A DNA stretch of 64,000 bases from an uncultured Bacilli bacterium (GTDB lineage Bacteria > Bacillota_I > Bacilli_A > RF39 > UBA660): assembly GCA_934130375.1 (NCBI GenBank), contig CAKOXW010000001.1, forward strand, positions 50,946-114,945. Reading direction: 5' to 3'. This document shows, in pieces, positions 645 to 61,490 of this stretch. Each line of letters begins with the position of its first letter. Position 1 is the stretch's first letter. The notes beneath the pieces are model-generated. The model searched no databases, was not told where the DNA came from, and was given only the letters and a program-made list of their open reading frames with translations. The position numbers and the translations under genes were made by a program.

Positions 645-717
645 GATAGATTAAAAAGTCTATCTTTTTTTTTAAATAAAACTGTTGTATAATATGGTAT
701 ATAGTAACGGAGGTTTT

Positions 718-3498
718 ATGAAAAAAGAAAAAGGTTTTACTTTAGTCGAATTACTTGCAGTAATAGTTATAATAGCGATTATTCTTGCGATTGCAATACC
801 AACAATTAGTAATTATAAAGAGGAAAGAAAAAAGAACTTATTTTTTGCACTTGCAAAAAATATAGTTAGAGAACTTAATTATGAAAATATGGAATCTAAT
901 AGTTCATTATTTAATATCCTTGGTTCAATTGATATGGAAATATCAAAAGAACAAGTAGATTTAGATAAATCCAATGTTTTAATATCAGAAGATGGGGTTG
1001 TTTTAAATCTATTTGGTAAAGGAGCATATGAAGGATTATATTTATGTAATATATCATCATCAACAAAAAGTCCAAATTATGAAGATACAACATGTATAGA
1101 TGGTAGTTATAAATCAGTTGTTACACTTGATGCACAAGGAGGTAGTGTTGAACCTACTACTTTAGAAGTTACAGCTGGAAATGAATATGGTGAACTACCT
1201 ACACCTACTAAAGAAAATAGTGATTTTATTGGTTGGTATTACAATGGAACTAAAATAGAAAGTAATACTAAAGTAACAACCATAGTAAATCACACTATAG
1301 TAGCAAAATGGAAGTATCATGCTAAATTAACAGTATTATTAAATGGTGGTACATTAGATCAAACATTTGAAGAAAGATATTTAGAAGGTACAAGTTTAAC
1401 ACTTGGAACTCCTACAAAAGATGAAAATACATTTGTAGGTTGGAAGATAACAAGTGGAAATGGTATTATAAGCGGGAATAATTTAATATTTGAAGATACA
1501 GATATAATTATTGAAGCACAATTTAGATTTAATAAAATAGAATTAGTTGTTGACTTTGATGGAGGTACTGGTATAAATCCTAGTGGAAATTATGATATAG
1601 GGTCATCTATTCAAATAACACCACCAACAAAACCTGGTTATGATTTTACTGGTTGGGAAGTAATTAGTGGTAATAGTATAATAAGTGGTAATACGATTAC
1701 TATTGGAAATCAAAATACTATTGCAAAAGCGACATATCAATCAAAAACATTTATAGTAACATTAAATGCAAATGGCGGAAGTGTAACTACAGATAGCATG
1801 TCTGTAGCTTACAATAGTACTTATGGTGAATTTCCAACTGCTACAAGATCAGGTTATAATTTTATAGGTTGGTTTACAACTGCAAGCGGTACTGAACAAG
1901 TTCTACCTTCAACAGTAGTAAAAATCAGTTCAAATCAAACATTATATGCGAAATGGGAAGAAAAAATAATAAATACAACTACTCTTTTAAATAGTTATAA
2001 GTGTAAGAATAAATCAGTTGGTGTTGAGGAATATGTAATGACATATACTGGTAATTGTGATGTTACAGAAACTGAAGCAGGTGAGTTTCAAATTAAATTT
2101 TTAACAAGCGGAACTCTTAGAATAAATGGTTCAACAAATGTTGATATCTTCGCTGTTGGTGCAGGAGGTGGAGGTTCTTCTACTACAGGCGGAGGTGGCG
2201 GATACACAGCATATAAACAAAATGTATCAAATATAACTAATCAAGATATTGAAGTAGCAATTGGTACAGGTGGTGCTGTTGGTGCAAATGGTACTGCATC
2301 ATCAGTTGGTGATATTATTAGTGCTGCTGGTGGAAATGCTGGTGGTGCAACAGGTGGCAATGGTGGTAATGGTGGCGGTGGCTACGGTGGTACGAAATCA
2401 GAATGGGCTTGTACAGAAAGATGGGATCAAGCCGGATGTGTTGCTTGGGGTTATGTTTACACATATGGCAATGGTGGTTCTGGTGGTAGTTATGGTAATA
2501 ATGGTTCTGCAGGAACGGTGCAACCTACTGATGGTGGAACTGGTCAAGGAACAACAACTTGTGAGTTTAATGAGGGTAACTTAAGTGGATGTACAAACGG
2601 AGTAAATTATGCTTATTCTGCAGGTGGTTATGGATGTGGAACTAAAGCAAATGGAAGTACAGGAAAAGGAAAAACTGGTGACAATTCAGGACATGGTGGT
2701 AATTGTAATGCGTCTGGTTCTTCAGGAGTTATAGTAATTAGAAGTAGAAATACAAAAAATATAGTTGTTGGTTCAAAAACAATTGGCACATATGATGGAA
2801 AGTTTATTGCTGAAGGTGATGAAAGTAATTGGGTTGTAAGATTTTTAACTGATGGAACCCTTAAGTTTAATGCAAATACTGAAATAGATGTTTTCGCAGT
2901 TGGTGCAGGAGGTGGAGGTTCTTCTACTACAGGAGGTGGTGGCGGTTATACAAAATATGTTGCTGGTGCTACGACTACTGCAAATGCAAAATATTCAGTT
3001 GTTATTGGAAAAGGTGGCGATATAGGTACTTCAGGTGGTGATAGTAGTTTATCTACAATTATTACGGCAAAAGGTGGTGGAGGTGGTTCTACTACTGGTG
3101 GCAATGGTGGTAATGGTGGCGGTGGCTACGGTGGTACGAAATCAGAATGGGCTTGTACAGAAAGATGGGATCAAGCCGGATGTGTTGCTTGGGGTTATGT
3201 TTACACATATGGCAATGGTGGTTCTGGTGGTAGTTATGGTAATAATGGTTCTGCAGGAACCGTGCAACCTACTAATGGTGGAACTGGTCAAGGAACAACA
3301 ACTTGTGAATTCAATGAGGGTAACTTAAGTGGATGTACAAGCGGAGTAAATTATGCTTATTCTACAGGTGGTTATGGATGTGGAACTAAAGCAAATGGAA
3401 GCAATGGTTTAGGTAAGTCAGGTAGTAATTCTGGAAGTGGTGGTTCTTGTCAGTCAACAGGCCAAAGTGGAGTTATAATAATAAGAAATAAACGATAA
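718..3498 (+). CDS. giant prepilin-type N-terminal cleavage/methylation-domain protein: type IV pilin-like N-terminus, four Listeria-Bacteroides (Flg_new) repeats and two tandem Gly/Cys-rich domains
   Basis: GGAGG RBS 5 nt before ATG 718. N-terminus MKKEKG|FTLVELLAVIVIIAI is a class III (prepilin) signal with Glu at +5. Four repeats follow with the pattern …NGG…Y(G/S)xLP…(GY)xFxGW…(A/Y)KW. Then two ~230-aa Gly-rich units each start FLT(S/D)GTL…(D/E)(I/V)FAVGAGGGGSSTTGGGGGYT and contain the Cys motif WACTERWDQAGCVAWGY. Confidence 0.8.
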   Translation: MKKEKGFTLVELLAVIVIIAIILAIAIPTISNYKEERKKNLFFALAKNIVRELNYENMESNSSLFNILGSIDMEISKEQVDLDKSNVLISEDGVVLNLFGKGAYEGLYLCNISSSTKSPNYEDTTCIDGSYKSVVTLDAQGGSVEPTTLEVTAGNEYGELPTPTKENSDFIGWYYNGTKIESNTKVTTIVNHTIVAKWKYHAKLTVLLNGGTLDQTFEERYLEGTSLTLGTPTKDENTFVGWKITSGNGIISGNNLIFEDTDIIIEAQFRFNKIELVVDFDGGTGINPSGNYDIGSSIQITPPTKPGYDFTGWEVISGNSIISGNTITIGNQNTIAKATYQSKTFIVTLNANGGSVTTDSMSVAYNSTYGEFPTATRSGYNFIGWFTTASGTEQVLPSTVVKISSNQTLYAKWEEKIINTTTLLNSYKCKNKSVGVEEYVMTYTGNCDVTETEAGEFQIKFLTSGTLRINGSTNVDIFAVGAGGGGSSTTGGGGGYTAYKQNVSNITNQDIEVAIGTGGAVGANGTASSVGDIISAAGGNAGGATGGNGGNGGGGYGGTKSEWACTERWDQAGCVAWGYVYTYGNGGSGGSYGNNGSAGTVQPTDGGTGQGTTTCEFNEGNLSGCTNGVNYAYSAGGYGCGTKANGSTGKGKTGDNSGHGGNCNASGSSGVIVIRSRNTKNIVVGSKTIGTYDGKFIAEGDESNWVVRFLTDGTLKFNANTEIDVFAVGAGGGGSSTTGGGGGYTKYVAGATTTANAKYSVVIGKGGDIGTSGGDSSLSTIITAKGGGGGSTTGGNGGNGGGGYGGTKSEWACTERWDQAGCVAWGYVYTYGNGGSGGSYGNNGSAGTVQPTNGGTGQGTTTCEFNEGNLSGCTSGVNYAYSTGGYGCGTKANGSNGLGKSGSNSGSGGSCQSTGQSGVIIIRNKR
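2354..2660. repeat. intragenic tandem duplication, copy A (~97% identical to copy B over ~300 nt)
   Basis: Direct comparison with 3097-3403. Long identical runs (ggtggcaatggtggtaatggtggcggtggctacggtggtacgaaatcagaatgggcttgtacagaaagatgggatcaagccggatgtgttgcttgg…) with only a handful of substitutions. Confidence 0.85.
3097..3403. repeat. intragenic tandem duplication, copy B
   Basis: See copy A. The repeat offset is 743 nt. It explains the spurious alternative-frame ORFs 2261-2584 and 3035-3328 in the track. Confidence 0.85.
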
Positions 3499-3652
3499 AA
3501 TTAATTAAAAATATTAAATCATTATTGTGATAAAAATCATTGTAGTTTATGGCTTAAGTGATAAATAGGATGTAATATAAATAAATAAAAGAGTAGGTTC
3601 TTTGTCAAATAGTGTTGGTAAACAATAAATTTGATAAATGAATTGAGATTGT

Positions 3653-3680
3653 AAGGATGATTATTATCATCCTTTTATAA
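3653..3680 (+). terminator. hairpin plus T-rich tail, candidate intrinsic terminator
   Basis: AAGGATGAttattATCATCCTT followed by TTATAAT. Confidence 0.35.
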
Positions 3681-3721
3681 TGCCCTTAATTAAGAAAATG
3701 AGTGCTAATATCCTATAATAC

Positions 3722-4099
3722 ATCTAAATCTCCTAACCTAGAACAAATAAATGATATGCTTAATAAAGCGTTTGATAAGAACGCTGATCTTGATGGATTA
3801 ATATTTCATTCAGATTAAGGCTGGCAATATCAACATCAATCATATCAACAAAGATTAAAAAATAAAGGTATAAAACAAAGTATGTCTAGGGAAGGCAATA
3901 GTATGGATAATGGAATGATGGAAAATTTCTTTGGTTTACTTAAAACAGAAATGTTTTATGATCAAGAAGATAGTTATAAAACATTAGATGATTTAATAAA
4001 AAAATTGATGACTATATTTGTTATTACAATTATGATAGAATTAAAGTTAAATTAAAAGGACTGTCACCCGTAAATTACAGGTTACAATCCTCTAATTAG
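3722..4099 (+). mobile_element. IS3-family transposase (orfB/integrase core) C-terminal fragment, 5'-truncated with an in-frame TAA: pseudogene relic
   Basis: Translation …LDGLIFHSD*GWQYQ…SMSREGNSMDNGMMENFFGLLKTEMFYDQ…YYNYDRIKVKLKGLSPVNYRLQSSN* matches the conserved IS3/IS150-type DDE C-terminal blocks (HSDrGsQY, REGNsmDNgmmEsFFgtLKtE, eRIKvkLkGLSPvqYR). A stop codon replaces the Arg of HSDRG. No upstream half and no inverted repeats are visible. Confidence 0.8.
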
Positions 4100-4229
4100 A
4101 AACTATTAATAAACTGTCCAACTTTTGGGGTTCAGTTCAGATTTACATTCGCCAACACTATTTATTATACAACCGATAAAAGTAATGCGCTTTTATCTTT
4201 TTTTTGATATAATTATAAGAGGTGGTATT

Positions 4230-5981
4230 ATGAGTAAAATTAAAGTGATGGATGAAATACTTGCAAATAAGATCGCAGCAGGGGAAGTAATTGAAAGATG
4301 CGTAAGTATTGTTAAGGAACTTGTAGAAAATAGTATAGATGCTAAAAGTAGTGTAATTAAGATTGAACTTATTGATAGTGGTATTAGTATGATAAAAGTA
4401 GTAGATGATGGTATAGGTATGGATTATGAAGATGCTCATCTTGCTTTTTTAAGACATGCTACTAGTAAGTTATTAAGTGATGATGATTTATTTAATATAA
4501 AATCTCTTGGATTTAGAGGTGAGGCTCTACCTTCTATCGCATCTGTATCTGAAGTATCATTAAAAACATGCCAAAAAGATATTGGTACACACCTTGTTGT
4601 AAAAGGTGGTAAGATAATTACTGATGAATATGCTGATAGTAGAGTTGGAACTGAGATAGAAGTCAAAAAATTATTTTATAATACTCCAGCAAGATTAAAG
4701 CATCTAAGCAGTTTATATACAGAACTTGCTCATATAACTGAATATATTAATAAAATTGCGCTTTCATATCCTGATATATCTTTTACTTTAATAAATGATA
4801 ATAAAGTACTTTTAAAAACTGATGGTAGTGGTAATTTATTAAAAGTAATTAATAGTATTTATGGACTGGACGTAACAAAAAAGATGATACCTATTTCTGC
4901 ATTTGATAATGATTATAAAATAGATGGTTATATTAGTTTACCTGAGATACAAAAAAATAATAGAAATCATATGGTTACTATTGTAAATGGTAGGGTAGTT
5001 AGAAATATAGAAATTAATAGATGTATTCAAGATAGTTATCATACTTATAAACCAGATGATAAATACCCAATAGTTGTTCTAAATATATCAGTAGACACTA
5101 CTTTAACTGATGTTAATATACATCCAACTAAACAAGATATTAAGTTTGGAAAAATAGATGCTTTATTAGAACTTATTAATAAAACTATTAAAAGTGCATT
5201 AGATGAAAAAATACTTATTCCAAAAATTGAAAATAAAGATGAAGAAATTGAAGCATTAAAACCAGTAAGTATGCCTACTAGTTTTGTAGAAGAAAAGGAA
5301 GTAGTTAAAGAAGAAGAAAAAAAGTATGAACAAGTACACTTAGATTTAGAATATATAAAGGAAGCAACTGATGATTATCAAGAAGAAGTAATTACTGAAA
5401 AGGTACCTGTTATGTATCCAGTTGGTTTAGTAAAAGGTACTTATATAATATGTCAAAATGAACTTGGTATGTATATGATTGATCAACATGCTGCTAACGA
5501 AAGAGTTAATTATGAATATTATTATTATGCTCTTTGTAATTTAAAAGATGAAATAGATATGCTAGTACCTATTACTATTGAACTTCCATATAATGAATTT
5601 ATAATAGTAAAAGAAAACCTTGAACTTCTTAAGAATATGCATTTTAATATTGAAGAATTTGGCATTAATACATTCATTGTAAGAAGTCATCCAATATGGT
5701 TACCTAAAGGTTGTGAAGAAATTGCAATAAGAAAGATTATTGAACTTATAATCGCTAAGGAAAAGAATTTTGATATATTAAAATTTAATGATCGTGTTGC
5801 AGCAACAGTCGCATGTAAAGCAAGTATAAAGGCTAATGATAATATTAATCTAGAAGAAATGGAAACACTTGTTAATAAATTAAGAAAGTGTAAAAATCCA
5901 TATACTTGTCCACATGGAAGACCAACAATTATATTTTATTCAAATTATGAATTAGAAAAATTATTTAAGAGGGCGATGTAA
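4230..5981 (+). CDS. mutL: DNA mismatch repair protein MutL
   Basis: AAGAGGTGG RBS before ATG 4230. MSKIKVMDEILANKIAAGEVIERCVSIVKELVENSIDA is the MutL GHKL ATPase N-terminus. The C-terminal dimerisation region carries the …CPHGRP… motif. Confidence 0.9.
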   Translation: MSKIKVMDEILANKIAAGEVIERCVSIVKELVENSIDAKSSVIKIELIDSGISMIKVVDDGIGMDYEDAHLAFLRHATSKLLSDDDLFNIKSLGFRGEALPSIASVSEVSLKTCQKDIGTHLVVKGGKIITDEYADSRVGTEIEVKKLFYNTPARLKHLSSLYTELAHITEYINKIALSYPDISFTLINDNKVLLKTDGSGNLLKVINSIYGLDVTKKMIPISAFDNDYKIDGYISLPEIQKNNRNHMVTIVNGRVVRNIEINRCIQDSYHTYKPDDKYPIVVLNISVDTTLTDVNIHPTKQDIKFGKIDALLELINKTIKSALDEKILIPKIENKDEEIEALKPVSMPTSFVEEKEVVKEEEKKYEQVHLDLEYIKEATDDYQEEVITEKVPVMYPVGLVKGTYIICQNELGMYMIDQHAANERVNYEYYYYALCNLKDEIDMLVPITIELPYNEFIIVKENLELLKNMHFNIEEFGINTFIVRSHPIWLPKGCEEIAIRKIIELIIAKEKNFDILKFNDRVAATVACKASIKANDNINLEEMETLVNKLRKCKNPYTCPHGRPTIIFYSNYELEKLFKRAM

Positions 5982-6841
5982 TGATAGTAGTAATAATTGG
6001 TCCTACTGGTGTAGGAAAAACAAAACTTAGTTTGGAACTTGCAAAGAAATATAATGCAGAAATTATAAATGCTGATGCTATGCAAGTGTATAAAGAGATG
6101 AATATTGGTACTGCTAAGGTAACTGATAAAATGGGTATAACTCATCATTTACTTAGTATTAGAAGTGTAAATGAGCCTTATTCTGTATATGAATACCAAA
6201 AAGATGGAAGAAAATTAATAGAAAGACTAAAAAAAGAAAATAAAAATATAATAATAGTTGGTGGTACTGGGCTTTATATTAAAGCATTGCTTTACGACTA
6301 TAAGTTTAATATAAATGATAAGAACAAGGATTATGATGATTTAAGTAATGAAGAGATATTAAATAAAATTAAAGAATATTGTGATACTGATATTCATGTT
6401 AATAATAGGAAAAGATTAGTAAGGATGTTAAATAAGATAGAAAATAATGATATTGAAGAAGTATCTGGTAATAACTTAATATACGATAATGTTTATTTTA
6501 TTGGACTTACTACAAATAGAGATAATTTATACAAAAGAATAAATGATAGAGTAGATGAAATGGTTGATGAAGGACTTATATCTGAAGTAAAAGATTTATA
6601 TGATAAAAATATAAATACAATACCAATTAATACAGCAATTGGTTATAAGGAATTATATAAATATTTTAATAATGAAATAAGTTTGGAAGATGCTATAGAG
6701 TTAATTAAAAGAAATTCAAGGAGATATGCTAAAAGACAATATACTTGGATTAATAATAAAATGAATGTTGAATGGTTTTATGTAGATTTTAATAATTTCA
6801 ATAATACGATAAAAGAAGTAGAAAAGTATATAACTAATTGA
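5981..6841 (+). CDS. miaA: tRNA dimethylallyltransferase MiaA
   Basis: IVVIIGPTGVGKTKLSLELAKKYNAEIINADAMQVYKEMNIGTAK (P-loop plus MiaA signature). Start overlaps the mutL stop. Confidence 0.9.
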   Translation: MIVVIIGPTGVGKTKLSLELAKKYNAEIINADAMQVYKEMNIGTAKVTDKMGITHHLLSIRSVNEPYSVYEYQKDGRKLIERLKKENKNIIIVGGTGLYIKALLYDYKFNINDKNKDYDDLSNEEILNKIKEYCDTDIHVNNRKRLVRMLNKIENNDIEEVSGNNLIYDNVYFIGLTTNRDNLYKRINDRVDEMVDEGLISEVKDLYDKNINTIPINTAIGYKELYKYFNNEISLEDAIELIKRNSRRYAKRQYTWINNKMNVEWFYVDFNNFNNTIKEVEKYITN

Positions 6842-6888
6842 CAAATTAGTTAAAAAGTATATAATATTTTTGAAAAAGAGGAAATATT

Positions 6889-7317
6889 ATGAAAAAATTT
6901 AATTATGATTTAACTGATGAAGAAGATATTGATAGATTATTTTTTGATACAGCTAAGATATTTGGCATTATATTTGTAATTTTATTAATTTGGAAAGGCT
7001 GTGAATTATTATATTTTGACAAAGTTAATAATTATACTAAGGAACTTGTTTTAGCAGCCGATAAAAAATATGAAAACAGAAAAATACTTGGATTGTCTAC
7101 TGATAATATTACTTGTAGTAATGTTATGGATAAAAAAGTTAAATATAAGAGTTGCAATATAGAGTTTAAGGATGACCATGCTTATCTTGATATGAAAGTA
7201 AATAATTTTATATTTCAATATAGATATAATTGTTATGGTTCTAAAGATGATTTAAAATGTGATAAAATCGATAAAATAAAAGAGAGAATTGAGGCAGAAG
7301 ATCAAAGCCACAAATAA
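6889..7317 (+). CDS. hypothetical membrane-anchored protein (142 aa)
   Basis: Single hydrophobic segment IFGIIFVILLIW. No known motif. Confidence 0.4.
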   Translation: MKKFNYDLTDEEDIDRLFFDTAKIFGIIFVILLIWKGCELLYFDKVNNYTKELVLAADKKYENRKILGLSTDNITCSNVMDKKVKYKSCNIEFKDDHAYLDMKVNNFIFQYRYNCYGSKDDLKCDKIDKIKERIEAEDQSHK

Positions 7318-7328
7318 ACTCTCTTTTT

Positions 7329-8249
7329 TTAATCTATAAAATTATATATTGCTTCATCATATACATGTTTGTTCTTAGGATTTAAGCTATCTATTTTATT
7401 AAATTCCTCCCTAGTCTTTAAGAAGTACTCATGAAGTAACATATCTCTATTTAAATCATTCACTGGGTCATCCCATGTAACATCAAGGCTTAGCCATTTA
7501 TTATTGATATATACTAAATTCCATATATGTGTATCATTTGATATTTTTACATTTTTTATATTTAATCTATCTAAGAATATACTCATAGTATCTGTATAAC
7601 CATTACATGTTGCTTTATTATCAAATAGTACTCCTATTGCGGTAGATGCATTACTATATGGATTATTTTCTGATTCAATATCATATTTAGTAGTATTAAT
7701 TATATAATCATGTATTGCAAGTATATTATCATAATCATTTTTTTCTTTATCTACGATAGTATCAAATATACTATCTATTTTATCATTAATATTTTTTATA
7801 TCATCTCTTTTATAAATTCTATTAATTGATAATGTAACTTTACCATAATTAGTATAAGTAGTTTTTATACTTTTAAAACTATTAAATACATTTACAAAGT
7901 TATTAATTTGAGATAATAGAGTAGAGTCATTATTAATTGCTTCAACATCTTTTAAACATTCTTTATATCCATTATCACAATAAAAAGTAAACTCTTGCAT
8001 ACCAGATGATATTATCGTGTAATATATATTAATAAGTTCATCCTTGTTATTAGCAATGAAGTCATCTGTTAGTTTTACAAAATCTACATCAACTTCTTTT
8101 GTATATTCGTTGTTATTTAGCGTTGTAGGTATTTTATTATAGTAATCTATTACGGTATCTAGTATTTCTTCTTTTTGTAAAAAACCAAGTGCGAATACAA
8201 AAAGGGTAAATACTGATAGCACTGCTACTAAAAATTTAAGAAATTTCAT
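7329..8249 (-). CDS. secreted transglutaminase-like (Cys-His-Asp) superfamily protein
   Basis: N-terminal signal peptide MKFLKFLVAVLSVFTLFVFALG. Core ATCNGYTDTMSIFLDRLNIKNVKISNDTHIWNLVYINNKWLSLDVTWDDP matches the transglutaminase-like C…H…D catalytic pattern. Confidence 0.6.
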   Translation of the reverse strand: MKFLKFLVAVLSVFTLFVFALGFLQKEEILDTVIDYYNKIPTTLNNNEYTKEVDVDFVKLTDDFIANNKDELINIYYTIISSGMQEFTFYCDNGYKECLKDVEAINNDSTLLSQINNFVNVFNSFKSIKTTYTNYGKVTLSINRIYKRDDIKNINDKIDSIFDTIVDKEKNDYDNILAIHDYIINTTKYDIESENNPYSNASTAIGVLFDNKATCNGYTDTMSIFLDRLNIKNVKISNDTHIWNLVYINNKWLSLDVTWDDPVNDLNRDMLLHEYFLKTREEFNKIDSLNPKNKHVYDEAIYNFID

Positions 8250-13678: not shown

Positions 13679-14209
13679 ATGTCTAGGTATTATAAAAAAA
13701 TATATGAAGAAAAGTATTATATAGATATTACTAAAGAGAAAGTTAAAAATAGAAATATTAATCCAAGAGAACCAAAAGAAGTTTTTGTGTACAAGCAATA
13801 TGATTTATCAAATGCAAAGTTTGATAAGAAGGGCCTTAGTAGTGATGAAAAGAGAAGTGTTGCTAGTCTAATAAAGTTTTTAGGTTGGGAAATAGATATA
13901 GTGCATAGAGTGAATATTCCTGAGGGTGTTAAAACACCTGATATCTATGCCGAAGGTGAGTACTGGGATATAAAAAATTATAAGAAATCCTTGACTTCAA
14001 AAAGTAGATTTAAAAAAATACGGCATTCTATTGAGCCAAATTTAGACCAAGCAAATAATTTTGTAATAGATTTGAATAATAAAGACTGTGATTTAACAAA
14101 TAATGAAGCAATTTTACAAATTAATAAAGTGTTTAAAGATTTTGAAAAAGCACAAAAAATAGTTTTAATTGGAAAAAGTGAACAAATATATTATTTTATA
14201 AAAAAATAA
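13679..14209 (+). CDS. hypothetical protein (176 aa)
   Basis: Intact ORF, no recognised motif. Confidence 0.4.
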   Translation: MSRYYKKIYEEKYYIDITKEKVKNRNINPREPKEVFVYKQYDLSNAKFDKKGLSSDEKRSVASLIKFLGWEIDIVHRVNIPEGVKTPDIYAEGEYWDIKNYKKSLTSKSRFKKIRHSIEPNLDQANNFVIDLNNKDCDLTNNEAILQINKVFKDFEKAQKIVLIGKSEQIYYFIKK

Positions 14210-30097: not shown

Positions 30098-31657
30098 ATG
30101 AAAAGAGTGCTTAAATATCTAGTTTTAACTTTAGTTTTTGTTGCAGGTAATGTGTATGCATCTCCTGCAAATGATATGTTTATTGATGATAATTTGTATA
30201 AGTGTGTAGTTGATAATTATAATAGTGAGAAGGGTACTAGTTATAAGTATACTGATGTTATTTATCAAGCAGATTTAAATAGTTTAACTAAGTTAGATTG
30301 TTCTAAGTATTCAGGTTCAATTGATAATTTGACTGGTCTTAATAAATTAATTGGTCTTACTAGTCTTAATTTGAGTGGTAATACTTTTATAGGTGGAAGT
30401 CTTACTTTAAATAAAAGTACTGCTAATTTAAAGAGTAATTTAAATTTACCAAGTCAAATTAAACTAAGTAATGTAACTTATACTATGTCTACTCCAAATA
30501 TTGTTAGTATTAAAAATGGCGTTGTAACACCTTTAAATATAGGTTCAACAAAAGTTACGATGATTGCAAATACGAATGGTGGCTCAATTAAAGAAGAGTA
30601 TTTGGTAACAGTTTCTAGTTTAAATAGAAGTAATAACAATAAGCTAGCATCTCTTTATTTATCACAAGGTGAATTTAAATTTGATAGTGATACTTTATCT
30701 TATTCGACTATAGTTGATAATAGTATAAATAAGGTAACCGTTACCGCTAAGGTGCTTGATCCTAAGGCTAAATTTGTTACTAATTATGGACCTAGAGAAG
30801 TTACTTTAAATGAAGGAAATAATAATATTGAAATTAAAGTAATGGCTGAAAATGGGGATGTTAAAACTTATACAATATTAGTAATGAGAAGTAATGGTAA
30901 TGATACTAATAACAGATTAATTAATATTGAATTATCTACTGGTAATATTAATTTTTCACCTGATGTATATATTTATTCTTTTACAGTTGCATCAAATGTT
31001 GATGAGTTGATTGTAAAGGGTGTTGCGGAATCTCCTTTATCTAAAGTAGAGGTAAGTGATACTAAGTTAAGAGTTGGTGAAAATAAGATAACTATTACAG
31101 TTACTTCTGAATCTCATGATAAAAAAGAATATCAATTAATTGTTACAAGAGAAGATTACGATTCACTTGATAATTATTTAAGTGCTTTAAATATAGAAGG
31201 TTATCAGATAAATTTTAATAGAAATACATTTAGTTATAATTTAAAAATAAATAATGAGAAAACTCTTAAGATTTCGCCTGTTGTTGAGAAGAATGATGCA
31301 ACTTATACAATAACAGGTAATACTAATTTAAAGAATAATTCAGTTATTAAGATTTATGTAAGTGACAAGGAAGGTAGTACTAGAACGTACGTGCTTAATA
31401 TCTCTAAGGATGAACCGAAGTTATCTATAGATTATAGATTAGTAATAGTATTTAGTGAATTCTTAATAATATTTATTCTTGTAATTATACTTATAAGTAA
31501 GAATAATAAAAATAGACCCAAGAGGGTTAGAAAAGTAAGACCTGTTAATATGCCTAAGAAGGCTAAGGTTAAGGTAACTAATAATGTATGTAAGAATTGT
31601 GGTACTGTAAATGATATTGGTAGTACTAAGTGTTATATATGTGGTAATAATTTGTAA
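30098..31657 (+). CDS. surface protein with LRR segment, Big_2-like domain and three cadherin-like beta-sandwich repeats; C-terminal TM anchor and cytoplasmic zinc-ribbon tail
   Basis: Signal peptide. LTGLNKLIGLTSLNLSGN (LRR). Three repeats of …NNxLxxLxLSxGxxxFxxDxxxYxxxV…VxAxxxDxxAxV…GxNxIxIxVxAExGDxKTYxIxVxR. TM LVIVFSEFLIIFILVIILI. Ends CKNCGTVNDIGSTKCYICGNNL. Confidence 0.6.
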   Translation: MKRVLKYLVLTLVFVAGNVYASPANDMFIDDNLYKCVVDNYNSEKGTSYKYTDVIYQADLNSLTKLDCSKYSGSIDNLTGLNKLIGLTSLNLSGNTFIGGSLTLNKSTANLKSNLNLPSQIKLSNVTYTMSTPNIVSIKNGVVTPLNIGSTKVTMIANTNGGSIKEEYLVTVSSLNRSNNNKLASLYLSQGEFKFDSDTLSYSTIVDNSINKVTVTAKVLDPKAKFVTNYGPREVTLNEGNNNIEIKVMAENGDVKTYTILVMRSNGNDTNNRLINIELSTGNINFSPDVYIYSFTVASNVDELIVKGVAESPLSKVEVSDTKLRVGENKITITVTSESHDKKEYQLIVTREDYDSLDNYLSALNIEGYQINFNRNTFSYNLKINNEKTLKISPVVEKNDATYTITGNTNLKNNSVIKIYVSDKEGSTRTYVLNISKDEPKLSIDYRLVIVFSEFLIIFILVIILISKNNKNRPKRVRKVRPVNMPKKAKVKVTNNVCKNCGTVNDIGSTKCYICGNNL

Positions 31658-36833: not shown

Positions 36834-37229
36834 ATGAAAAGAAATGGTTTTACATTAGTTGAATTACTTGCAGTAATAGTTATACTTTCCTTGATACTCA
36901 CAATCGCATATCCTAAGGTATCAAGTTTGATTGAAAATGAAAAGCAAAGAACATTTAAATTATCAGTTAATTCGCTTATAAATGGCGCTAAAAATGTATG
37001 TGCTAATTACCAAAGTGAATTAAATGCTAGTGAGAAAACATATACATATATAGATAATAAATTTAAATGTGATACCGAGATTTTAGAAATGAGTAATCCT
37101 GGGAAGTTTATATCTCCTTCTACAATTTCATACAACAAGGATTGTGAAGTTAGTTTATCAGTAGAGAATGAAGAATATAAAGCCACAAAAGATTATAGTG
37201 ATAGTGATATAACTATTGTTAGAAAATAA
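36834..37229 (+). CDS. small prepilin-type (ComGC/GspG-like) pilin/pseudopilin
   Basis: MKRNG|FTLVELLAVIVILSLILTIAYP class III signal with Glu+5. 131 aa. Confidence 0.8.
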   Translation: MKRNGFTLVELLAVIVILSLILTIAYPKVSSLIENEKQRTFKLSVNSLINGAKNVCANYQSELNASEKTYTYIDNKFKCDTEILEMSNPGKFISPSTISYNKDCEVSLSVENEEYKATKDYSDSDITIVRK

Positions 37230-38544: not shown

Positions 38545-39804
38545 ATGAAGAAGAAAAAAGGGTTTACATTAATAGAGTTACTTGCAGTAATAGTAATACT
38601 AGCAGTAATACTAGTTATTGCAGTACCAAGAATTAGTGATGTAATAAAAAATTCTAAAAAAGCATCGTTTGAAGCAAGTGCAAAAACAATAATATCACAA
38701 GCAGAGAAAAAGAAAATGGAGCAAGAAGTACTAGGTAATACTAATCCAATAAATTGTAGCGATATTGCTAATATTAATAATGATGATTATGAAAGTTGTG
38801 AAATAAATTTTGATGCAAATGGTAATGCTAAGATTACACTTATAGGAAAAGGAAAATTTGAAGGATTAAAAATAGTTGATGCAACAAAAGATAATTTAAG
38901 TGCAGTTGAATCAAAACTACCTGAATATGGTATAGCAACTGACTATATAAGTAACTTATATTCTTATGATGCTGAATCTAATGGACTTAAAAAAGATAAT
39001 ACTGTTGATGCTAATATAAGATATTATGGAGAGAATCCTAATAACTATGTATCCTTTAATAATGAATTATGGAGAATAATAGGTGTATTTGGTAATAATG
39101 TAAAATTAGTAAGAGGAAGATTAGGTAGTTTATCATGGGATACATCAGATTCTACTATAAATAATGGATTTGGAGTAAATGAATGGAGTGGTGCTGATTT
39201 AAAAGAGTACTTAAATACAATGTATTATGGTGGTACAAGTGTTACATGTTATAATGATGCGAATAACACAACTACAACATGTCCAACCGTATCATTAAAT
39301 GAAAATGCAAAAAGTATGATAGATAATCATACATGGGCAACTGGTGCAATAGAAGTTGAAAAAATGACAGATACAATTGCATTTTATAATGCAGAAAGAG
39401 GGACGCAAACAGGTAAAATATGTACAAGTGGAGATTATTGCAATGATACAGTTACAAGAACTACATTATGGATTGGATATATTGCTCTTCCTTATGTAAC
39501 AGACTGGGCATATGCAAGTGGTGAAGCAGAATGTGAAACTAATCTAGCAAAAGAAGATAGTTCAGGTAAGAATTTATGTAAAAGCAATAATTGGATGCCT
39601 AGTAATAGTTATTCATGGTATCTTTCACCAATTGCTAACACTAGTGGTGCTGTTGGTGCTTGGGATGTCGGCGATATAGGATTAGCTAATAGTGAAGGTG
39701 TTTTTGTATCTCGTCGCTTTTCTCCAGCTTTGTATCTAAAAAGTGGTGCAAAAATAATGAGTGGTACTGGTACTAGTAGTGATCCATATAAATTAGAAAT
39801 ATAA
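38545..39804 (+). CDS. prepilin-type N-terminal domain protein with ~380-aa C-terminal globular/adhesin-like region
   Basis: MKKKKG|FTLIELLAVIVILAVILVIAVP class III signal with Glu+5. The C-terminal part is Asn/Thr/Ser- and Cys-rich. Confidence 0.8.
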   Translation: MKKKKGFTLIELLAVIVILAVILVIAVPRISDVIKNSKKASFEASAKTIISQAEKKKMEQEVLGNTNPINCSDIANINNDDYESCEINFDANGNAKITLIGKGKFEGLKIVDATKDNLSAVESKLPEYGIATDYISNLYSYDAESNGLKKDNTVDANIRYYGENPNNYVSFNNELWRIIGVFGNNVKLVRGRLGSLSWDTSDSTINNGFGVNEWSGADLKEYLNTMYYGGTSVTCYNDANNTTTTCPTVSLNENAKSMIDNHTWATGAIEVEKMTDTIAFYNAERGTQTGKICTSGDYCNDTVTRTTLWIGYIALPYVTDWAYASGEAECETNLAKEDSSGKNLCKSNNWMPSNSYSWYLSPIANTSGAVGAWDVGDIGLANSEGVFVSRRFSPALYLKSGAKIMSGTGTSSDPYKLEI

Positions 39805-44397: not shown

Positions 44398-46677
44398 ATG
44401 AAAGAAGCATTTTGGGGACTACTTATAATTATCTTAGGAATATTTGGCATAGTATGTATAAATTTATTTCAGAATGTTACTGTAGATAATGATAAAGTGT
44501 ATTATGTTTTAAAAGAATCGACTGAAGCATCTGCCCATGATTCAATTGATTTAAGTTACTATAGACTAGGTGGCTCACTAAGAATAGTTGAAGATAAGTT
44601 TGTTGAGAATCTTGCAAGAAGATTTTCACAAAGTATTACTGCTGGTAGATATACAATATCAGTACAAAATATAAATGAGCTACCACCACTTATGTCAGTA
44701 AAAATAAGAAGTGGAGTATCATCAATAAAGGGAGATGAATTTAACTTAACAAATAGAGTTGATGCGATAATTGAAACTAAATATAAGTTAAGTGAAGTTC
44801 TTGATTTCTTAGGAATTACTGAAGAAGAATGGAATGACATAAACAATAAGAATAAAGATACAATCAAAAATGGAGTATGTGGAGTAACATTTATAAATGA
44901 TGGAGATTTAGATTGTATTACAGGAGATTTAAGATTTGATGGGCTTGGTGATACCGATTTAAAAAATGCAGTATGTATGGGTCAACAAAAATCAAATGTA
45001 GAAGCAACTGCTAAGTATAGTGTTTGTGAGTGTGGAAAATGGGTTTCAAAAGAAGAAACACTAGTTGCTAATCCGGTACTTGTTAACAATGATGGAAATA
45101 GAGAATATGTTTATACATATAGATTTGTAAAAACTGGTGAAATAAGAAATATTGATGAAACAATAATAAAAAGAGTTAGAGCAGATGTATGTACAACGGG
45201 TGTAGAAGTATGGGTTCCAAAAGATTTAAGAGAAAAGGAACCAAGTAGCGATAATTCTAAGTATGTAAAGTGTGATCCGGCAACAGGTATAAGAATACCT
45301 GAAGATGTTGAGATAGTACTTCATCCAAATTATATACCATTAAATGCAACAAATAGAGAAATAAAATGGACAGCTGGTAATGCAAGTTTGTTATCATTTG
45401 GAAGTTTTAGTGTTACACAGCCAACAAAATTAACTGGTTTTTCAAGAGCATTAATAAAAGGTAAATTAAGTGGTACAGAGGAAGAACAAACAACAATGAC
45501 TGCAACAACTACATTAGACCAAAGTGCAGTATGTCCAATAAGAGTATGGGATGGTAATGTTGATAGTGTAAGTTGTGAAAATATAAATACTAAGGTAGGT
45601 TATACGACAGCATTTAAAGGTTCATACGAGCCATATAATGCAACTAAAACCAAATTAAAATGGTCAATTGATGATACATCACTTGTTGAACTAGATGAAT
45701 TAACAGGTAAAGCAAAAGCTTTAAAAGTTGGAACTGCAACAATAACAGTTACTGCTGAAAATGGTAAAACAGCAACATGTACATTAAAAGTAGATAAATA
45801 TCAAGAACCTAGATCAGATGGTGGATATTCAGGAGCCGGAGGTGGAGGTGGTGCTGGTATATGGATTGTAACAGATAAAGATGGAAATAGAACAACATAT
45901 AGCAATATGTATAATGCTATAAAGGCTGCAGGTACTAAGGTTGGAGAAGTTTCTATATCGGTTTCGAATGGATCTGGAGAATATGAATGGGCAAAAGGTG
46001 TGACCGAATCTCATTTAAAAAGTGCATCAACTGAACTTGTTAAGACGGCGGGTGGAACAATATCAATAAAAAGCGATGATAAAAATGGTATAATATTTAA
46101 AATAAAGGATGAAAATGGCAGATTACTTGAAACAAATCAAAATCCACCACCACCACCATATCAAGAACCTTGTTACTGTTGTGGTGGATGCGGAGGTGGT
46201 TATGTGCCTGGTTCTCCAGAACAAGGTGCTGCTGCAAATAATAGTATAGTTGCATGTTTTGAAAAAGGTACTGAAGTATTGACTAATAATGGTTATAAAG
46301 ATATAAGTAAATTAAAAGTTGGGGAAAAGGTTTTATCATATAATGAAAATACAAAGAAAAACGAATATGCTAAAATCATTAAAGTATATAAACACGAAAA
46401 AGTAAGTGATACATTATTCTCCTTAACAATAAATGGAACTATTGTCAAAGCATCAAGTGAACATCCATTTTACATAAAGACAGTAAATGGAATTACTCAA
46501 ATTAAAGCAGAAAATTTAAAAATTGGTGATATAGTAATAACTTCTTTTGGAAATTATTATCCGATAACTTTCATTTCTTCTATGAATATAGTTGAAGATT
46601 TATATAATATTGAAGTTGAAAATAATCACAATTATTATGTTACTAGAGAAAATGTTCTAGTACATAATAAACCATAG
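44398..46677 (+). CDS. N-terminally membrane-anchored Big_2 surface protein ending in a mini-intein-like Hint/BIL (bacterial intein-like, type A) domain
   Basis: TM LLIIILGIFGIVCINLF. Two Big_2-like Ig domains. Gly-rich SGAGGGGGAGIW and PPPPPYQEPCYCCGGCGGG. The final ~140 aa contain intein blocks A (A|CFEKGTEVLT), B (SSEHPF), F (LYNIEVENNHNYYV) and G (ENVLVHN), followed only by KP*. Confidence 0.75.
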   Translation: MKEAFWGLLIIILGIFGIVCINLFQNVTVDNDKVYYVLKESTEASAHDSIDLSYYRLGGSLRIVEDKFVENLARRFSQSITAGRYTISVQNINELPPLMSVKIRSGVSSIKGDEFNLTNRVDAIIETKYKLSEVLDFLGITEEEWNDINNKNKDTIKNGVCGVTFINDGDLDCITGDLRFDGLGDTDLKNAVCMGQQKSNVEATAKYSVCECGKWVSKEETLVANPVLVNNDGNREYVYTYRFVKTGEIRNIDETIIKRVRADVCTTGVEVWVPKDLREKEPSSDNSKYVKCDPATGIRIPEDVEIVLHPNYIPLNATNREIKWTAGNASLLSFGSFSVTQPTKLTGFSRALIKGKLSGTEEEQTTMTATTTLDQSAVCPIRVWDGNVDSVSCENINTKVGYTTAFKGSYEPYNATKTKLKWSIDDTSLVELDELTGKAKALKVGTATITVTAENGKTATCTLKVDKYQEPRSDGGYSGAGGGGGAGIWIVTDKDGNRTTYSNMYNAIKAAGTKVGEVSISVSNGSGEYEWAKGVTESHLKSASTELVKTAGGTISIKSDDKNGIIFKIKDENGRLLETNQNPPPPPYQEPCYCCGGCGGGYVPGSPEQGAAANNSIVACFEKGTEVLTNNGYKDISKLKVGEKVLSYNENTKKNEYAKIIKVYKHEKVSDTLFSLTINGTIVKASSEHPFYIKTVNGITQIKAENLKIGDIVITSFGNYYPITFISSMNIVEDLYNIEVENNHNYYVTRENVLVHNKP

Positions 46678-46688
46678 GAGGAATAACT

Positions 46689-47624
46689 GTGAAAAATAAG
46701 AATATTTTAATATTTAGTATAGTTTTATTAATAATAGTATTACTAGTTACATTATATTCTGTTTATAGAAAGAAAACCGAGAAAAGTGATAGCTATGGTT
46801 ATCTTCACAATCTTGGCGAAAAAGTTACTATCGATACAAATATAAATTATATGGATGAATACAAAGAGAATATTATTGATAATGAATTAAAAGAAGTAGA
46901 CTATGAATTGTTTTTTGATGATACTACTATATATGGTAAGGTTTTTATAAATGAAAGTTATGAGCTATATATAACTAATGGTTTTACTAAAGAAAATTAT
47001 AAAATAAATAACGTTAAATTTAAAACTTTATATAAAAGTCTTGTGTCATATGCAAAATCCTTAATTGTTTATGCAATATCACAAGATGGTGATTTGTACA
47101 AAATAGTGCTCAATGAAAATAATATAGAACATGTTAAATATTATAAAATTGAAACAGCTAGTAAAGTTTTGAAATTTACTAATCTACAAATTTATAGTCA
47201 TGCATGTACTGAACCATCTTTGGTAGTTTTATGCGAAGATAATAAAATGTATGATGTTAAAAGTGGACTTCTTTATTCAACAACTTATAAGAAATTTTTT
47301 GATAAATATTTGATTTTTGATGATAAGTCATTAACTGATTCAAAAGGAAGAAAAATTATTAATTTCTTAAATGAACAAGTAAAGATAAGAGGCTTTATAG
47401 AAACAAATAATGATGAATTTGAGAAAAGTGATAAAGTATTGTTCTTTACTACAACTGATGAATTACTTTACTTATATGATGAAAATAATACGTATATATA
47501 TGTTAGAGCAGTAAAGTCAGTTGAAAATGTTGATGTTTTCAAAGCCAAAATGGATTTTTATAAAGGTAAATCGTGGGAATTTGAAGGTCATTATACATAT
47601 TACGTAAATAGTGAGTGGAATTAA
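46689..47624 (+). CDS. hypothetical N-terminally membrane-anchored protein (311 aa)
   Basis: GGAGG RBS. TM ILIFSIVLLIIVLLVTLYSVY. No motif. Confidence 0.45.
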   Translation: MKNKNILIFSIVLLIIVLLVTLYSVYRKKTEKSDSYGYLHNLGEKVTIDTNINYMDEYKENIIDNELKEVDYELFFDDTTIYGKVFINESYELYITNGFTKENYKINNVKFKTLYKSLVSYAKSLIVYAISQDGDLYKIVLNENNIEHVKYYKIETASKVLKFTNLQIYSHACTEPSLVVLCEDNKMYDVKSGLLYSTTYKKFFDKYLIFDDKSLTDSKGRKIINFLNEQVKIRGFIETNNDEFEKSDKVLFFTTTDELLYLYDENNTYIYVRAVKSVENVDVFKAKMDFYKGKSWEFEGHYTYYVNSEWN

Positions 47625-48174
47625 TAATAAAAAGGTGAAGTTGACTAACTTTACCTTTTTATTTGGCAAAATAGCAAAAAAAGTATATGGAGAAAATTCG
47701 TATACTCATTCTAAGGTTGAACTTGAAGCAAAATTAAAAAGTCTTGATATTAAGTATCCTGAAGAAACTATTACTATGAATTGTGTTGGTACTTTAGTAG
47801 CAAGAGACAAGGATGGGAATTATAAGATTATTCAAACTCTTGAATATATAGATGATGATGCAAATGTAATGCGTATTTATGATATATTAGAAGAATTGTT
47901 ATGTGGAATTAATATTGATGATATTGATTTTAGTCAAAATGATTTAGGCAAATATTATAAAATGGATTCAAGTTTATTTACTCCAAAATGTGAATATTTA
48001 GAAGAAAATCCAATATATGAGTACGGAAGTGCGCCATATGCTGTATTATTTATACAAGAACATTTTGATGATATAATTGCAAAATATGCTGAAGCTGGCA
48101 AAGTATATAGTTATCAAGTAACTGATCAATATAAATATTTATATACTTACGATGTATACTATGATGACATTTAA
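47611..48174 (+). CDS. hypothetical acidic cytoplasmic protein (start uncertain)
   Basis: Overlaps the upstream stop. Possible alternative GTG/TTG starts at 47635/47641. Confidence 0.4.
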   Translation: MSGINNKKVKLTNFTFLFGKIAKKVYGENSYTHSKVELEAKLKSLDIKYPEETITMNCVGTLVARDKDGNYKIIQTLEYIDDDANVMRIYDILEELLCGINIDDIDFSQNDLGKYYKMDSSLFTPKCEYLEENPIYEYGSAPYAVLFIQEHFDDIIAKYAEAGKVYSYQVTDQYKYLYTYDVYYDDI

Positions 48175-59845: not shown

Positions 59846-60165
59846 TAGGTAATGAATAGTTTACATGTGTAAACTATTTTTTTGTACAAGTATTATTAAT
59901 GTTTAAAAATGGAAAAGACCATTTGGTCTTATTTTGTTGCTATAGTTTTATGTGATGATGTTTACTGCAGTATTTTTTGAATAATTGTGTAGTATTTGTA
60001 TGGTTTTTAATGATATTTTGATATAATACTTATTATTTTTTAAAAATTAGAAAATATTATTGCAGTATTTATTTTAGTTGCTGCAGTATTTATTATAGTT
60101 TTTTGTAGTATTTAAATTGTTTTTTCATACAAATAAATGAGCATGAAAAAAAAGACCATTTGGCC

Positions 60166-61143
60166 TTATTTTTTTGTTGATGATGCTTTTTGTTCATTCA
60201 TATAATGATCATATTTTATTTTTAATTCAGCATCGTAAATTTTTAAATCATTTTTTTCTCTTAACCATTCCATAGCATAAACATAAATATTATCAGTATT
60301 GCTTATTTTTTCACTTACTAAAGTGTCTTTAATACTATCTTTTACTTCGTCGAATGCAGGTTTTTCTTTTTGGTCTGTTTTTAATATTATGTGATATCCA
60401 AATTGTGTTTTAACAGGTTCTTTTGTATATTCTCCAACTTTTAACTTAACAGCAGCATCTTCAAATTCAGTTACTGTTTTGCCTCTATTGAAGTAACCAA
60501 TATTACCACCATCAGATGCAGATGAATCTGAAGAATTTTCTTTTGCTAACTCTTCGAAACTAGCACCTTCATCTAATTTTTTAATTAATTCTTTTGCTTT
60601 TTCTAATGCTTTAGCCTCAGCTTCTTTCTTTTCATCACTAGTTGCATTGCTACTAGCGTCAGACTTAATAAGAATATGACTTACTTTCATATCACCAATT
60701 GATTTTTCTTCATAATATTTTTCAATATCTTTATCAGTAATTAGAGTAGCAGCATAATCTTTCGCAGCATTTTCTCTTTTGAACGCAACTTCAATATAAT
60801 CTCTTAATTCTTTTTCAGAAGAAACTCCATAATATTGACTAATTGCACTATTGAAATCTGAACCAAATTGATTTTTTAAAGATACGATAGTACTATCAAT
60901 CTTAGTTTTCATATCTTTATCAGTTTCATATACCTTATTTAATAATTGATCATCAATTGAATTAATTAAAGCATATGTTCCATAACTTGTTTTTAATTTG
61001 TTATAGAATTCATCAACTGTCATATTTAGTCCATCCATTTCAAACAATAACTCAGAGCCATCATTTAATTTTGGTATTTTACCACAACCTGTTAATGATA
61101 ATATAACAAGTGATACACATAATATTTTTTTAATTGCTTTCAT
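60166..61143 (-). CDS. prsA: foldase lipoprotein PrsA (parvulin-type PPIase)
   Basis: Lipobox LSLTGCGK. Parvulin domain MKVSHILIKSD…GGNIGYFNRGKTVTEFEDAA…FGYHIILKTD. Confidence 0.8.
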   Translation of the reverse strand: MKAIKKILCVSLVILSLTGCGKIPKLNDGSELLFEMDGLNMTVDEFYNKLKTSYGTYALINSIDDQLLNKVYETDKDMKTKIDSTIVSLKNQFGSDFNSAISQYYGVSSEKELRDYIEVAFKRENAAKDYAATLITDKDIEKYYEEKSIGDMKVSHILIKSDASSNATSDEKKEAEAKALEKAKELIKKLDEGASFEELAKENSSDSSASDGGNIGYFNRGKTVTEFEDAAVKLKVGEYTKEPVKTQFGYHIILKTDQKEKPAFDEVKDSIKDTLVSEKISNTDNIYVYAMEWLREKNDLKIYDAELKIKYDHYMNEQKASSTKK

Positions 61144-61272
61144 CTAAAATCCTCCTTGCATAATAATTATAATAAAAAAACAATAAAAAAACAATAATTT
61201 AGTTATAAGTAATCACACTATTTATGCATTTGCCATAAAATAATGTGAATAGATGAAAAGGAGGAATCGATT

Positions 61273-61356
61273 ATGGGACACGGATATATTAATGGTTCAG
61301 CCATAGTATTAGTATTATTCATAATATTAGTAATCGTAATAGGTGCCTACATTTAA
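61273..61356 (+). CDS. tiny TM protein, YjcZ/tiny_TM_bacill-like (27 aa), not in ORF track
   Basis: AAAAGGAGG RBS. MGHGYINGSAIVLVLFIILVIVIGAYI*. Confidence 0.5.
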   Translation: MGHGYINGSAIVLVLFIILVIVIGAYI

Positions 61357-61376
61357 ATAAAAAAGGAGGTGTAATT

Positions 61377-61490
61377 ATGGCTTGCAATACAACATGCCAA
61401 AACTCTTGTGGTGGAGGCAATACAGGATTTTTAATTGTTATAGTTTTATATATTTTACTTGCTATAATACTAGGATCAGTTATATGCTAA
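61377..61490 (+). CDS. tiny TM protein, YjcZ-like paralogue (37 aa), not in ORF track
   Basis: AAAAGGAGGTG RBS. MACNTTCQNSCGGGNTGFLIVIVLYILLAIILGSVIC*. Confidence 0.5.
   Translation: MACNTTCQNSCGGGNTGFLIVIVLYILLAIILGSVIC

Follow-up and report, generated by a model that had tools for sequence, protein, structure and literature searches.

A probable modular type IV pilin with phage-fibre-type glycine-rich modules in an uncultured gut bacterium

Introduction

Modular pilins, defined in 2021 by Raynaud et al., combine an N-terminal IPR012902 module with one or more additional domains whose occurrence is not confined to type IV pilus biology, and more than 1,200 such proteins in 264 architectures were reported (PMC8179133). 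In Streptococcus sanguinis, the modular pilins PilB and PilC carry a vWA module and a lectin module, respectively (PMC8179133, PMC9934059). Dataset S1 of the 2021 study lists nine proteins with the architecture IPR012902-IPR013378-IPR013378, two with IPR012902-PF12810, and one in which IPR012902 is combined with three PF12810 domains (PMC8179133). Here, we describe a gene at positions 718..3498 of a 64-kb stretch of DNA from an uncultured Bacilli bacterium (the whole analyzed stretch is hereafter called the window), whose 926-amino-acid product joins a type IV pilin-like N-terminus to four repeat domains and two glycine-rich modules.

Glycine-rich domains of a comparable kind have been described in phages and animals. 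The authors of the structure of the cyanophage Pam3 tail fibre gp24 (PDB 7YPX) assigned receptor recognition to a pair of TNF-like and polyglycine-rich domains and noted a resemblance to S16 gp38 and ALK (PMC9608196). A 2026 paper placed Pam3, Bxb1 gp33/gp29, S16 gp38, and ALK in one group, that of glycine-rich bundles whose helices are of the polyproline-II type (PMC13243192).

The window protein falls within the definition of a modular pilin, as Pfam recognized N_methyl, four Flg_new, and two Gly_rich_2 domains in it. We consider it reasonably probable that the gene, from an uncultured gut bacterium, specifies a large surface protein built from a type IV pilin head, a four-repeat stalk, and two glycine-rich domains of the receptor-binding kind borne by phage tail fibres.

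Results

Gene structure and prepilin signal

The gene lies on the + strand in an open reading frame (ORF) spanning 685..3498. According to the ORF list and our reading of the sequence, its likely start is the ATG at 718, which gives 926 amino acids, and a GGAGG is located 6 nt 5′ of this ATG. A stem-loop followed by a T-run was read directly 3′ of the upstream gene, ahead of the TATAAT and the GGAGG. The exact 926-amino-acid protein is present on 10 public contigs, the longest of which is 607 kb. A preliminary description of this DNA had reported a 926-amino-acid ORF with a prepilin signal, four Flg_new repeats, and two tandem glycine-rich modules, and both the ORF list and Pfam agreed with it. 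The features of the gene are as follows.

688..712, + strand: candidate expression signals, namely TATAAT (688-693) and the Shine-Dalgarno sequence GGAGG (708-712), consensus matches read from the sequence
718..3498, + strand: coding sequence of the modular pilin-like protein, 926 amino acids, from the ORF list, with the stop codon counted in the end coordinate
718..798, + strand: class III (prepilin) signal, comprising the leader MKKEKG (718-735), a predicted cleavage after Gly6, and then FTLVELLAVIVIIAIILAIAI with Glu at +5, from PF07963, TIGR02532, and conservation
718..1113, + strand: probable pilin head module, residues 1 to ~132, with a Cys110-Cys126 pair
1114..1962, + strand: four Listeria-Bacteroides (Flg_new / InlB B-repeat) domains, residues ~133-415, presumed stalk, from PF09479, PF18998, and TIGR02543
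1978..2751, + strand: Gly_rich_2 module 1, residues 421-678, with an N-terminal Cys429-Cys447 pair and the WACTERWDQAGCVAWGY hairpin insertion
2752..3495, + strand: Gly_rich_2 module 2, residues 679-926, ending in GVIIIRNKR without LPXTG and without a membrane anchor; the best PF21722 stretch is residues 716-923

The N-terminus has the form of a class III signal: a short hydrophilic leader ending in Gly, MKKEKG, precedes approximately 20 hydrophobic residues, FTLVELLAVIVIIAIILAIAI, with Phe at +1 and Glu at +5. Pfam matched N_methyl (PF07963) to residues 1-27 with an E-value of 3e-8 and 33.4 bits against a cut-off of 21.2, and the NCBIfam model TIGR02532 (IV_pilin_GFxxxE) scored 27.6 bits against a cut-off of 16.3. 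In an alignment of 17 full-length relatives with differing heads, F7, T8, L9, and E11 were invariant and G6 was at least 90% conserved, being Ala in one protein. The same conservation of the signal (F+1, T+2, L+3, and E+5 invariant; G-1 at least 90%) was observed across 19 heads of several types. The 262 proteins collected for their glycine-rich module included 48 with the prepilin motif, 64 with Sec-like or membrane-anchor N-termini, and 103 short stand-alone proteins; the motif G/FTLxE (the slash marks the cleavage site) was in register in at least 48 of the 262. The preliminary description had read the N-terminus as a prepilin peptidase substrate with Glu at +5, and a class III signal is backed by Pfam, NCBIfam, and conservation in relatives. 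It had also proposed a look at Gly-1 and Glu+5 in alignments of homologues; both proved conserved, so the segment is very unlikely to be a plain Sec signal or transmembrane anchor, and the pilin reading stands for this reason. Glu+5 is important in filament assembly, whereas a simple membrane anchor has no use for it.

The head was 59-99% identical among close relatives of 644-689 amino acids, and distant relatives had an unrelated head and kept the prepilin motif. In a fold comparison, the top PDB matches of the predicted head model were pilins. Comparison of heads together with the predicted model suggested that a globular pilin head is kept between the helix and the stalk.

Stalk repeats and anchoring

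The region following the head was assigned by Pfam to Flg_new (PF09479) in four tandem stretches with an E-value of 1.9e-34 and 118 bits against a cut-off of 27. TIGR02543 of NCBIfam scored 58.7 bits against a cut-off of 20.95, and PF18998 also matched the repeat region. All 16 of the 16 cysteines in the protein sit in local pairs as read from the sequence, a pattern that would suit an extracellular protein. An LPXTG motif and a C-terminal membrane-spanning segment were absent from the 926-amino-acid sequence, and its C-terminus, ...SGVIIIRNKR, is the conserved end of the glycine-rich module. Because there is no C-terminal anchor or sortase motif, the N-terminus is the sole anchor, and a sortase-anchored (LPXTG) surface protein, having neither LPXTG nor a hydrophobic segment at the C-terminus to support it, was rejected.

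Family and fold of the glycine-rich modules

Two stretches of the protein were matched to Gly_rich_2 (PF21722) with an E-value of 2.1e-10 and 41.5 bits against a gathering threshold of 24.3, and the PF21722 tag was precomputed on most relatives. The glycine- and cysteine-rich module, which the preliminary description could not assign to a family, can thus be named, and structurally related domains have been solved in phage tail fibres and ALK. The profile and fold searches suggested there for this region yielded the PF21722 match and the fold relatives, and the novelty of the protein is lowered because the region matches a known family. The two modules form a tandem duplication with a period of 744 nt: nucleotides 2314-2613 and 3058-3357, the central 300 nt, share 93% identity, which falls to 76% in the 5′ parts of the modules. 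Their glycine content is 26-28%, and both motifs previously quoted for these domains occur in one copy per module.

The core motifs of the family (W.IKFLTSG, D.F.VGGGG, GGGGGYT, GGNGG.GGGG, G.GQG.TT.EF, NTGGGG, and GGSGIVIIRN) were all found in the window modules, as were the 14 invariant Gly/Thr columns and the approximately 45 near-invariant columns of the family alignment. In an exhaustive search of 1.84 billion representative proteins, 304 clusters matched the module at E <= 1e-3. Many of the collected proteins carry the module in tandem (two copies in 32, three in three, and six in one), and in the domain matches inspected, the last module reaches the C-terminus and ends in ...GGSGIVIIRNxR.

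The preliminary description had taken WACTERWDQAGCVAWGY for a cysteine-bearing core. It is instead an insertion of 24 residues (module residues 139-162) whose predicted structure is a beta-hairpin rich in aromatic residues and stapled by a disulfide, and it is absent from essentially all of the 70 other aligned members, as is likewise the NLSGCT loop. The median number of cysteines per module was four in pilin-headed and other long cellular proteins versus one in short phage-like proteins, and relatives carry other cysteine-rich insertions at about the same module position. From the sequences, the cysteine-rich insertions would be variable, stabilized surface loops and obvious candidates for ligand contact.

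In the fold comparison, the predicted module resembled solved members of the TNF-like plus polyglycine-rich fold in three dimensions. Foldseek matched the module to 150 predicted viral structures at E <= 1e-3, most of which are named "Glycine-rich domain-containing protein" and the others tail, baseplate, or tail-fibre proteins. At least four loci on viral contigs carrying the module profile were confirmed. Stand-alone homologues are located in phage modules at two loci (L007 and L008): one, in a siphophage contig, follows TMP-Dit-Tal at a distance of two genes and precedes a PG_binding_1 (cell-wall-binding) gene, and the other sits in a phi29-like structural block. HMMER searches of the PDB with the module or with a 72-sequence profile returned only spurious low-complexity matches, and the link between the module and the solved structures rests on fold comparison for this reason. 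The glycine-rich module had no match in PHROGs, and PF12810, the ALK-type Gly_rich family, was not detected by Pfam in the window protein even at E <= 1. Two relatives with the same head and stalk (P0019 and P0020) carry PF12810 in place of PF21722. A search of approximately 8 million papers for PF21722 and Gly_rich_2 found no mention of either.

Variation between strains

The window was compared by blastn with the corresponding locus of a sister strain (L002). Positions 1-1713 were 97.7% identical and positions 4175-8000 were 99.2% identical, and no match was found for 1714-4174. The sister strain replaces this cassette by an unrelated 934-nt segment that encodes a different, single glycine-rich module, and its orthologue (P0001, 644 amino acids) occupies the syntenic slot between a 164-amino-acid ORF and mutL. 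No close match to the cassette was found by blastn among the fetched loci. The cassette and the insertion sequence remnant within it are as follows.

1714..4174, + strand: strain-variable cassette comprising the end of Flg_new repeat 3, repeat 4, both glycine-rich modules, and the IS3 relic, from blastn against the sister strain
~3713..4100, + strand: degenerate 3′ remnant of an IS3-family transposase (rve domain), from translations; the public gene call is tagged rve_2 (weak)

The IS3 relic corresponds to the C-terminal part of the transposase and contains an in-frame stop (HSD*GWQY) and a frameshift. Its position downstream of the gene, noted in the preliminary description, was confirmed by translations and by the public gene call.

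A similar pattern was observed at the trigger factor/lon locus of two other relatives (L004 and L005). Their flanks are 96% identical, and both the pilin head and the glycine-rich module are non-homologous; the two pilin-headed genes match only at the start of the signal peptide and in an Flg_new stretch with 83% identity. A distant relative has two small pilins just upstream of lon. A C-terminal part that differs between near-identical strains would be expected of a variable surface adhesin, and the mosaic pattern at the two loci is what exposed, selected surface proteins would show.

Genomic setting

The window belongs to a 216-kb contig from a Hadza gut metagenome. Its G+C content is 26-27%, and its genes are almost all on the + strand. 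Hundreds of gut-metagenome proteins match PolA at 97-99% identity, and judging from these sequences the host is a common uncultured low-GC gut species. The housekeeping neighbours of the gene are pfk, mutL, miaA, recG, parC/gyrA, murG, murB, ftsQ, ftsK, xerC, rnc, smc, ppdK, and polA. The GC skew was positive in all intervals except 60001-62000, where it was near zero; together with the placement of nearly all genes on the + strand, this points to a single replichore in which genes are strongly co-oriented with replication. Immediately upstream of the window (L001 8200..9413 versus L002 8190..9413), pfk forms one ORF of 407 amino acids in the sister strain; the contig of the window has two pfk ORFs of 191 and 176 amino acids in its place, indicating either a pseudogene or an assembly error.

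Other prepilin-type and surface genes

The gene is not the only pilin-like gene of the window. Two further prepilin-type genes, both passing PF07963 and TIGR02532, had been missed in the preliminary description.

36834..37229, + strand: prepilin-type gene, 131 amino acids, beginning MKRNGFTLVELL...
38545..39804, + strand: prepilin-type gene, 419 amino acids, beginning MKKKKGFTLIELL...

These two genes flank rnc and a sugar transferase gene amid housekeeping genes. The head of the 419-amino-acid protein resembles those of Gly_rich_2 pilins of the P0027 type, and its large C-terminal region had no Pfam match. In a Hadza "uncultured Bacilli" metagenome-assembled genome (CAKPHH010000006.1; L017 3451..14200), five pilin-headed paralogues of 679-691 amino acids are arranged in tandem. 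Further low-GC "Bacilli" loci have pilin-headed ORFs of 300-1400 amino acids beside ftsK, parC, smc, and rnc, as in the window.

Three other regions of the window encode candidate surface or toxin-related proteins, all on the + strand. The 759-amino-acid protein at 44398..46677 contains DUF5411, Big_2, and a pretoxin HINT domain at its extreme C-terminus (residues 627-757). No toxin tip follows the HINT domain, and two unannotated ORFs come next (46689..47624 and 47611..48174); the region 44398..48174 may be a truncated or split polymorphic-toxin locus. A PT-HINT domain also occurs in several pilin-headed relatives (P0041 and P0042). A 176-amino-acid ORF at 13679..14209, alone between an ORF of unknown function and recG, has a CdiA_C (contact-dependent inhibition toxin C-terminal) domain with an E-value of 9.6e-10. 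The 519-amino-acid protein at 30098..31657 has a signal peptide, a leucine-rich-repeat-like region, three Cadherin-like beta-sandwich domains, a C-terminal membrane-spanning segment, and a zinc ribbon, and is probably another surface protein.

Discussion

Summarizing the above results, we favour with moderate confidence a model in which the window protein is a modular surface adhesin of the type IV pilin family, displayed by the filament machine, probably at the filament tip, with the phage-fibre-type modules as its binding end. The class III signal would insert the protein into the membrane, where a prepilin peptidase encoded elsewhere would cut after Gly6 and methylate Phe7. The hydrophobic alpha-1N helix with Glu+5 would then retain the mature protein of approximately 920 amino acids there, and loading by a type IV filament machine, either Com-type or a type IV pilus, could follow; a subunit so bulky would most likely be placed at the filament tip. 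There, the small pilin head would bear the stalk of four Flg_new domains, and the stalk would present two tandem modules of the TNF-like plus polyglycine-rich fold, which phages use distally on their tail fibres for host receptors. Ligand specificity may reside in the variable disulfide-stapled loops such as the aromatic hairpin WACTERWDQAGCVAWGY, and cassette exchange of the 3′ end of the gene between strains could alter what the cell binds or how the cell is recognized. The steps of insertion, processing, and loading are drawn from the sequence and established pilin biology, and those concerning the stalk, modules, and cassette from predicted structure, relatives, and inference. Cleavage, methylation, filament incorporation, and ligand binding of the 926-amino-acid protein are what we infer on these grounds. 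The idea of a large tip pilin or pilin-anchored adhesin had been put forward in the preliminary description, and it fits the known class of modular pilins (PMC8179133).

Several points weigh against this model. We surveyed the 64-kb window, 9.3 kb upstream, and 10 kb downstream (approximately 84 kb) for assembly genes using Pfam on most ORFs together with public gene calls, inspection of the remaining ORFs by eye, and a six-frame scan for ATPase and prepilin peptidase motifs. No T2SSE ATPase, Peptidase_A24, or T2SSF-like platform ORF was found within this region, and the earlier observation that pilus-assembly genes are missing from the 64 kb therefore holds for the window and its ~10-kb flanks. 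Nor was a T2SSE-type ATPase motif found within 10 kb of the pilin-like genes at approximately 18 loci of related low-GC "Bacilli" assemblies among the matches listed; these loci were drawn from at least 80 that matched the generic pilin pattern [KE][KN]GFTL[VI]EL. HMMER gave no sequence-level link from the module to solved structures, the ALK chains included. A subunit of approximately 100 kDa would have to be incorporated into a filament, and the binding role of the cellular Gly_rich_2 modules is proposed by analogy, carried over from phage fibres and ALK.

Possible, if on balance doubtful, is a model in which the pilin-like helix serves only as a cleavable membrane anchor that does not polymerize, and the binding modules reach through the cell wall on the Flg_new stalk. 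Archaeal surface proteins with class III signal peptides use a prepilin-type signal as an anchor in this manner. Housekeeping genes surround this orphan gene, and the same holds for the other prepilin genes of the window and for those of related genomes; many of the pilin-headed proteins of the lineage are very large (300-1400 amino acids, with five tandem paralogues of about 685 amino acids at one locus, L017); and the four-domain stalk alone would probably span a Gram-positive wall. However, Glu+5 and Phe+1 are invariant across divergent heads although a simple anchor does not need them, and the predicted model places a globular pilin head between the helix and the stalk. Scattered pilin genes are also common in filament-building bacteria.

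Two further explanations would deny the protein a pilin nature or a cellular origin. That it carries an ordinary Sec signal peptide or anchor resembling a prepilin by chance is very improbable. Sec-like hydrophobic N-termini do occur in 64 of the 262 Gly_rich_2 proteins, some of which have the same downstream architecture, but the Pfam and NCBIfam prepilin models scored above their cut-offs, G/FTLxE is in register across 48 divergent proteins, and no cleavage site of the Ala-X-Ala type was read after the hydrophobic stretch; the Sec explanation was rejected on these three grounds. Hardly credible, finally, is a prophage tail fibre remnant captured in the chromosome. The predicted fold of the module is that of a phage tail fibre or tail brush domain, the closest short homologues are phage-encoded, and an IS relic adjoins the gene. 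Nevertheless, no phage genes were found within the ~84 kb, where the neighbours are pfk, mutL, and miaA; a probable pilin head and Flg_new stalk take the place of a fibre shaft; the cellular modules form a cysteine-rich subgroup (median of four cysteines per module versus one); and the locus is syntenic in other strains. A prophage remnant or virion tail fibre gene was rejected in view of the housekeeping setting and the lack of a phage structural module.

A broader proposal, which we regard as unlikely, is that the lineage uses the class III signal as a general display route for a large, strain-variable surface repertoire, the genes for which are scattered among housekeeping genes with no dedicated pilus operon, and that the binding modules are shared with phages. 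If this were true, phage-fibre-type modules would let a cell attach to other microbes in the way a phage recognizes its host, or would act as decoys.

In the modular surface adhesin favoured here, a type IV pilin, the glycine-rich fold of ALK, and the receptor-binding glycine-rich domain found on phage tail fibres, subjects that are usually treated apart, come together in a common uncultured human gut bacterium. Should ligand binding by the Gly_rich_2 modules follow the pattern proposed for their phage counterparts, the pilin-headed proteins would be strain-specific adhesins whose specificity can be changed by a cassette swap, which would be relevant to colonization, contacts between bacteria, and the exchange of binding modules between phage and host. 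It would also provide the Pfam family PF21722 with a candidate function that is concrete and testable. The gain is incremental rather than conceptual because the modular pilin class and the fold have already been described.

Comparison with known systems

Like PilB and PilC of S. sanguinis, the window protein pairs a small pilin module bearing a class III signal with a bulky domain of a kind not restricted to pili, for which ligand binding is predicted. Its cargo of four Flg_new and two PF21722 domains is a combination not found among the modular pilins of the 2021 study, and PF21722 is not in that dataset. Unlike the modular pilins compared here, the window gene lies outside any pil or com operon, and it belongs to an uncultured lineage. 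The pilin-headed Gly_rich_2 architecture is recurrent, as at least 48 such proteins were collected and tandem modules are common.

Of the phage proteins, Pam3 gp24 forms a trimeric fibre of the virion that has a helical shaft at its N-terminus and depends on a chaperone, gp25. The window protein, in contrast, is cellular, carries two tandem modules, and has predicted disulfide-stapled insertions that are absent from phage-type members. The gp38 adhesins of T-even phages (Salmonella phage S16, PDB 6F45) follow the same design logic: the fibre tip bears a polyglycine-rich domain in which the glycine motifs are conserved and the loops that bind the receptor are hypervariable (PMC9608196, PMC13243192). 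The tail wing brush gp33 and tail spike gp29 of mycobacteriophage Bxb1 (PDB 9D93) are parts of a phage tail tip, and the glycine-rich domain of ALK/LTK (PDB 7LRZ, 7NX3, 7LS0, and 7LIR; PF12810) is the ectodomain of a metazoan receptor tyrosine kinase, and both differ from the window protein in this respect.

The window protein thus belongs to an already catalogued class, the modular pilins, rather than to a new one; its kind is known because modular pilin architectures have been catalogued and the module fold has been solved in phages and ALK. What is added here is the explicit link between PF21722 on cellular pilins and the receptor-binding fibres of phages, together with the cysteine-rich insertions specific to the cellular modules and the cassette swapping in a prevalent gut species.

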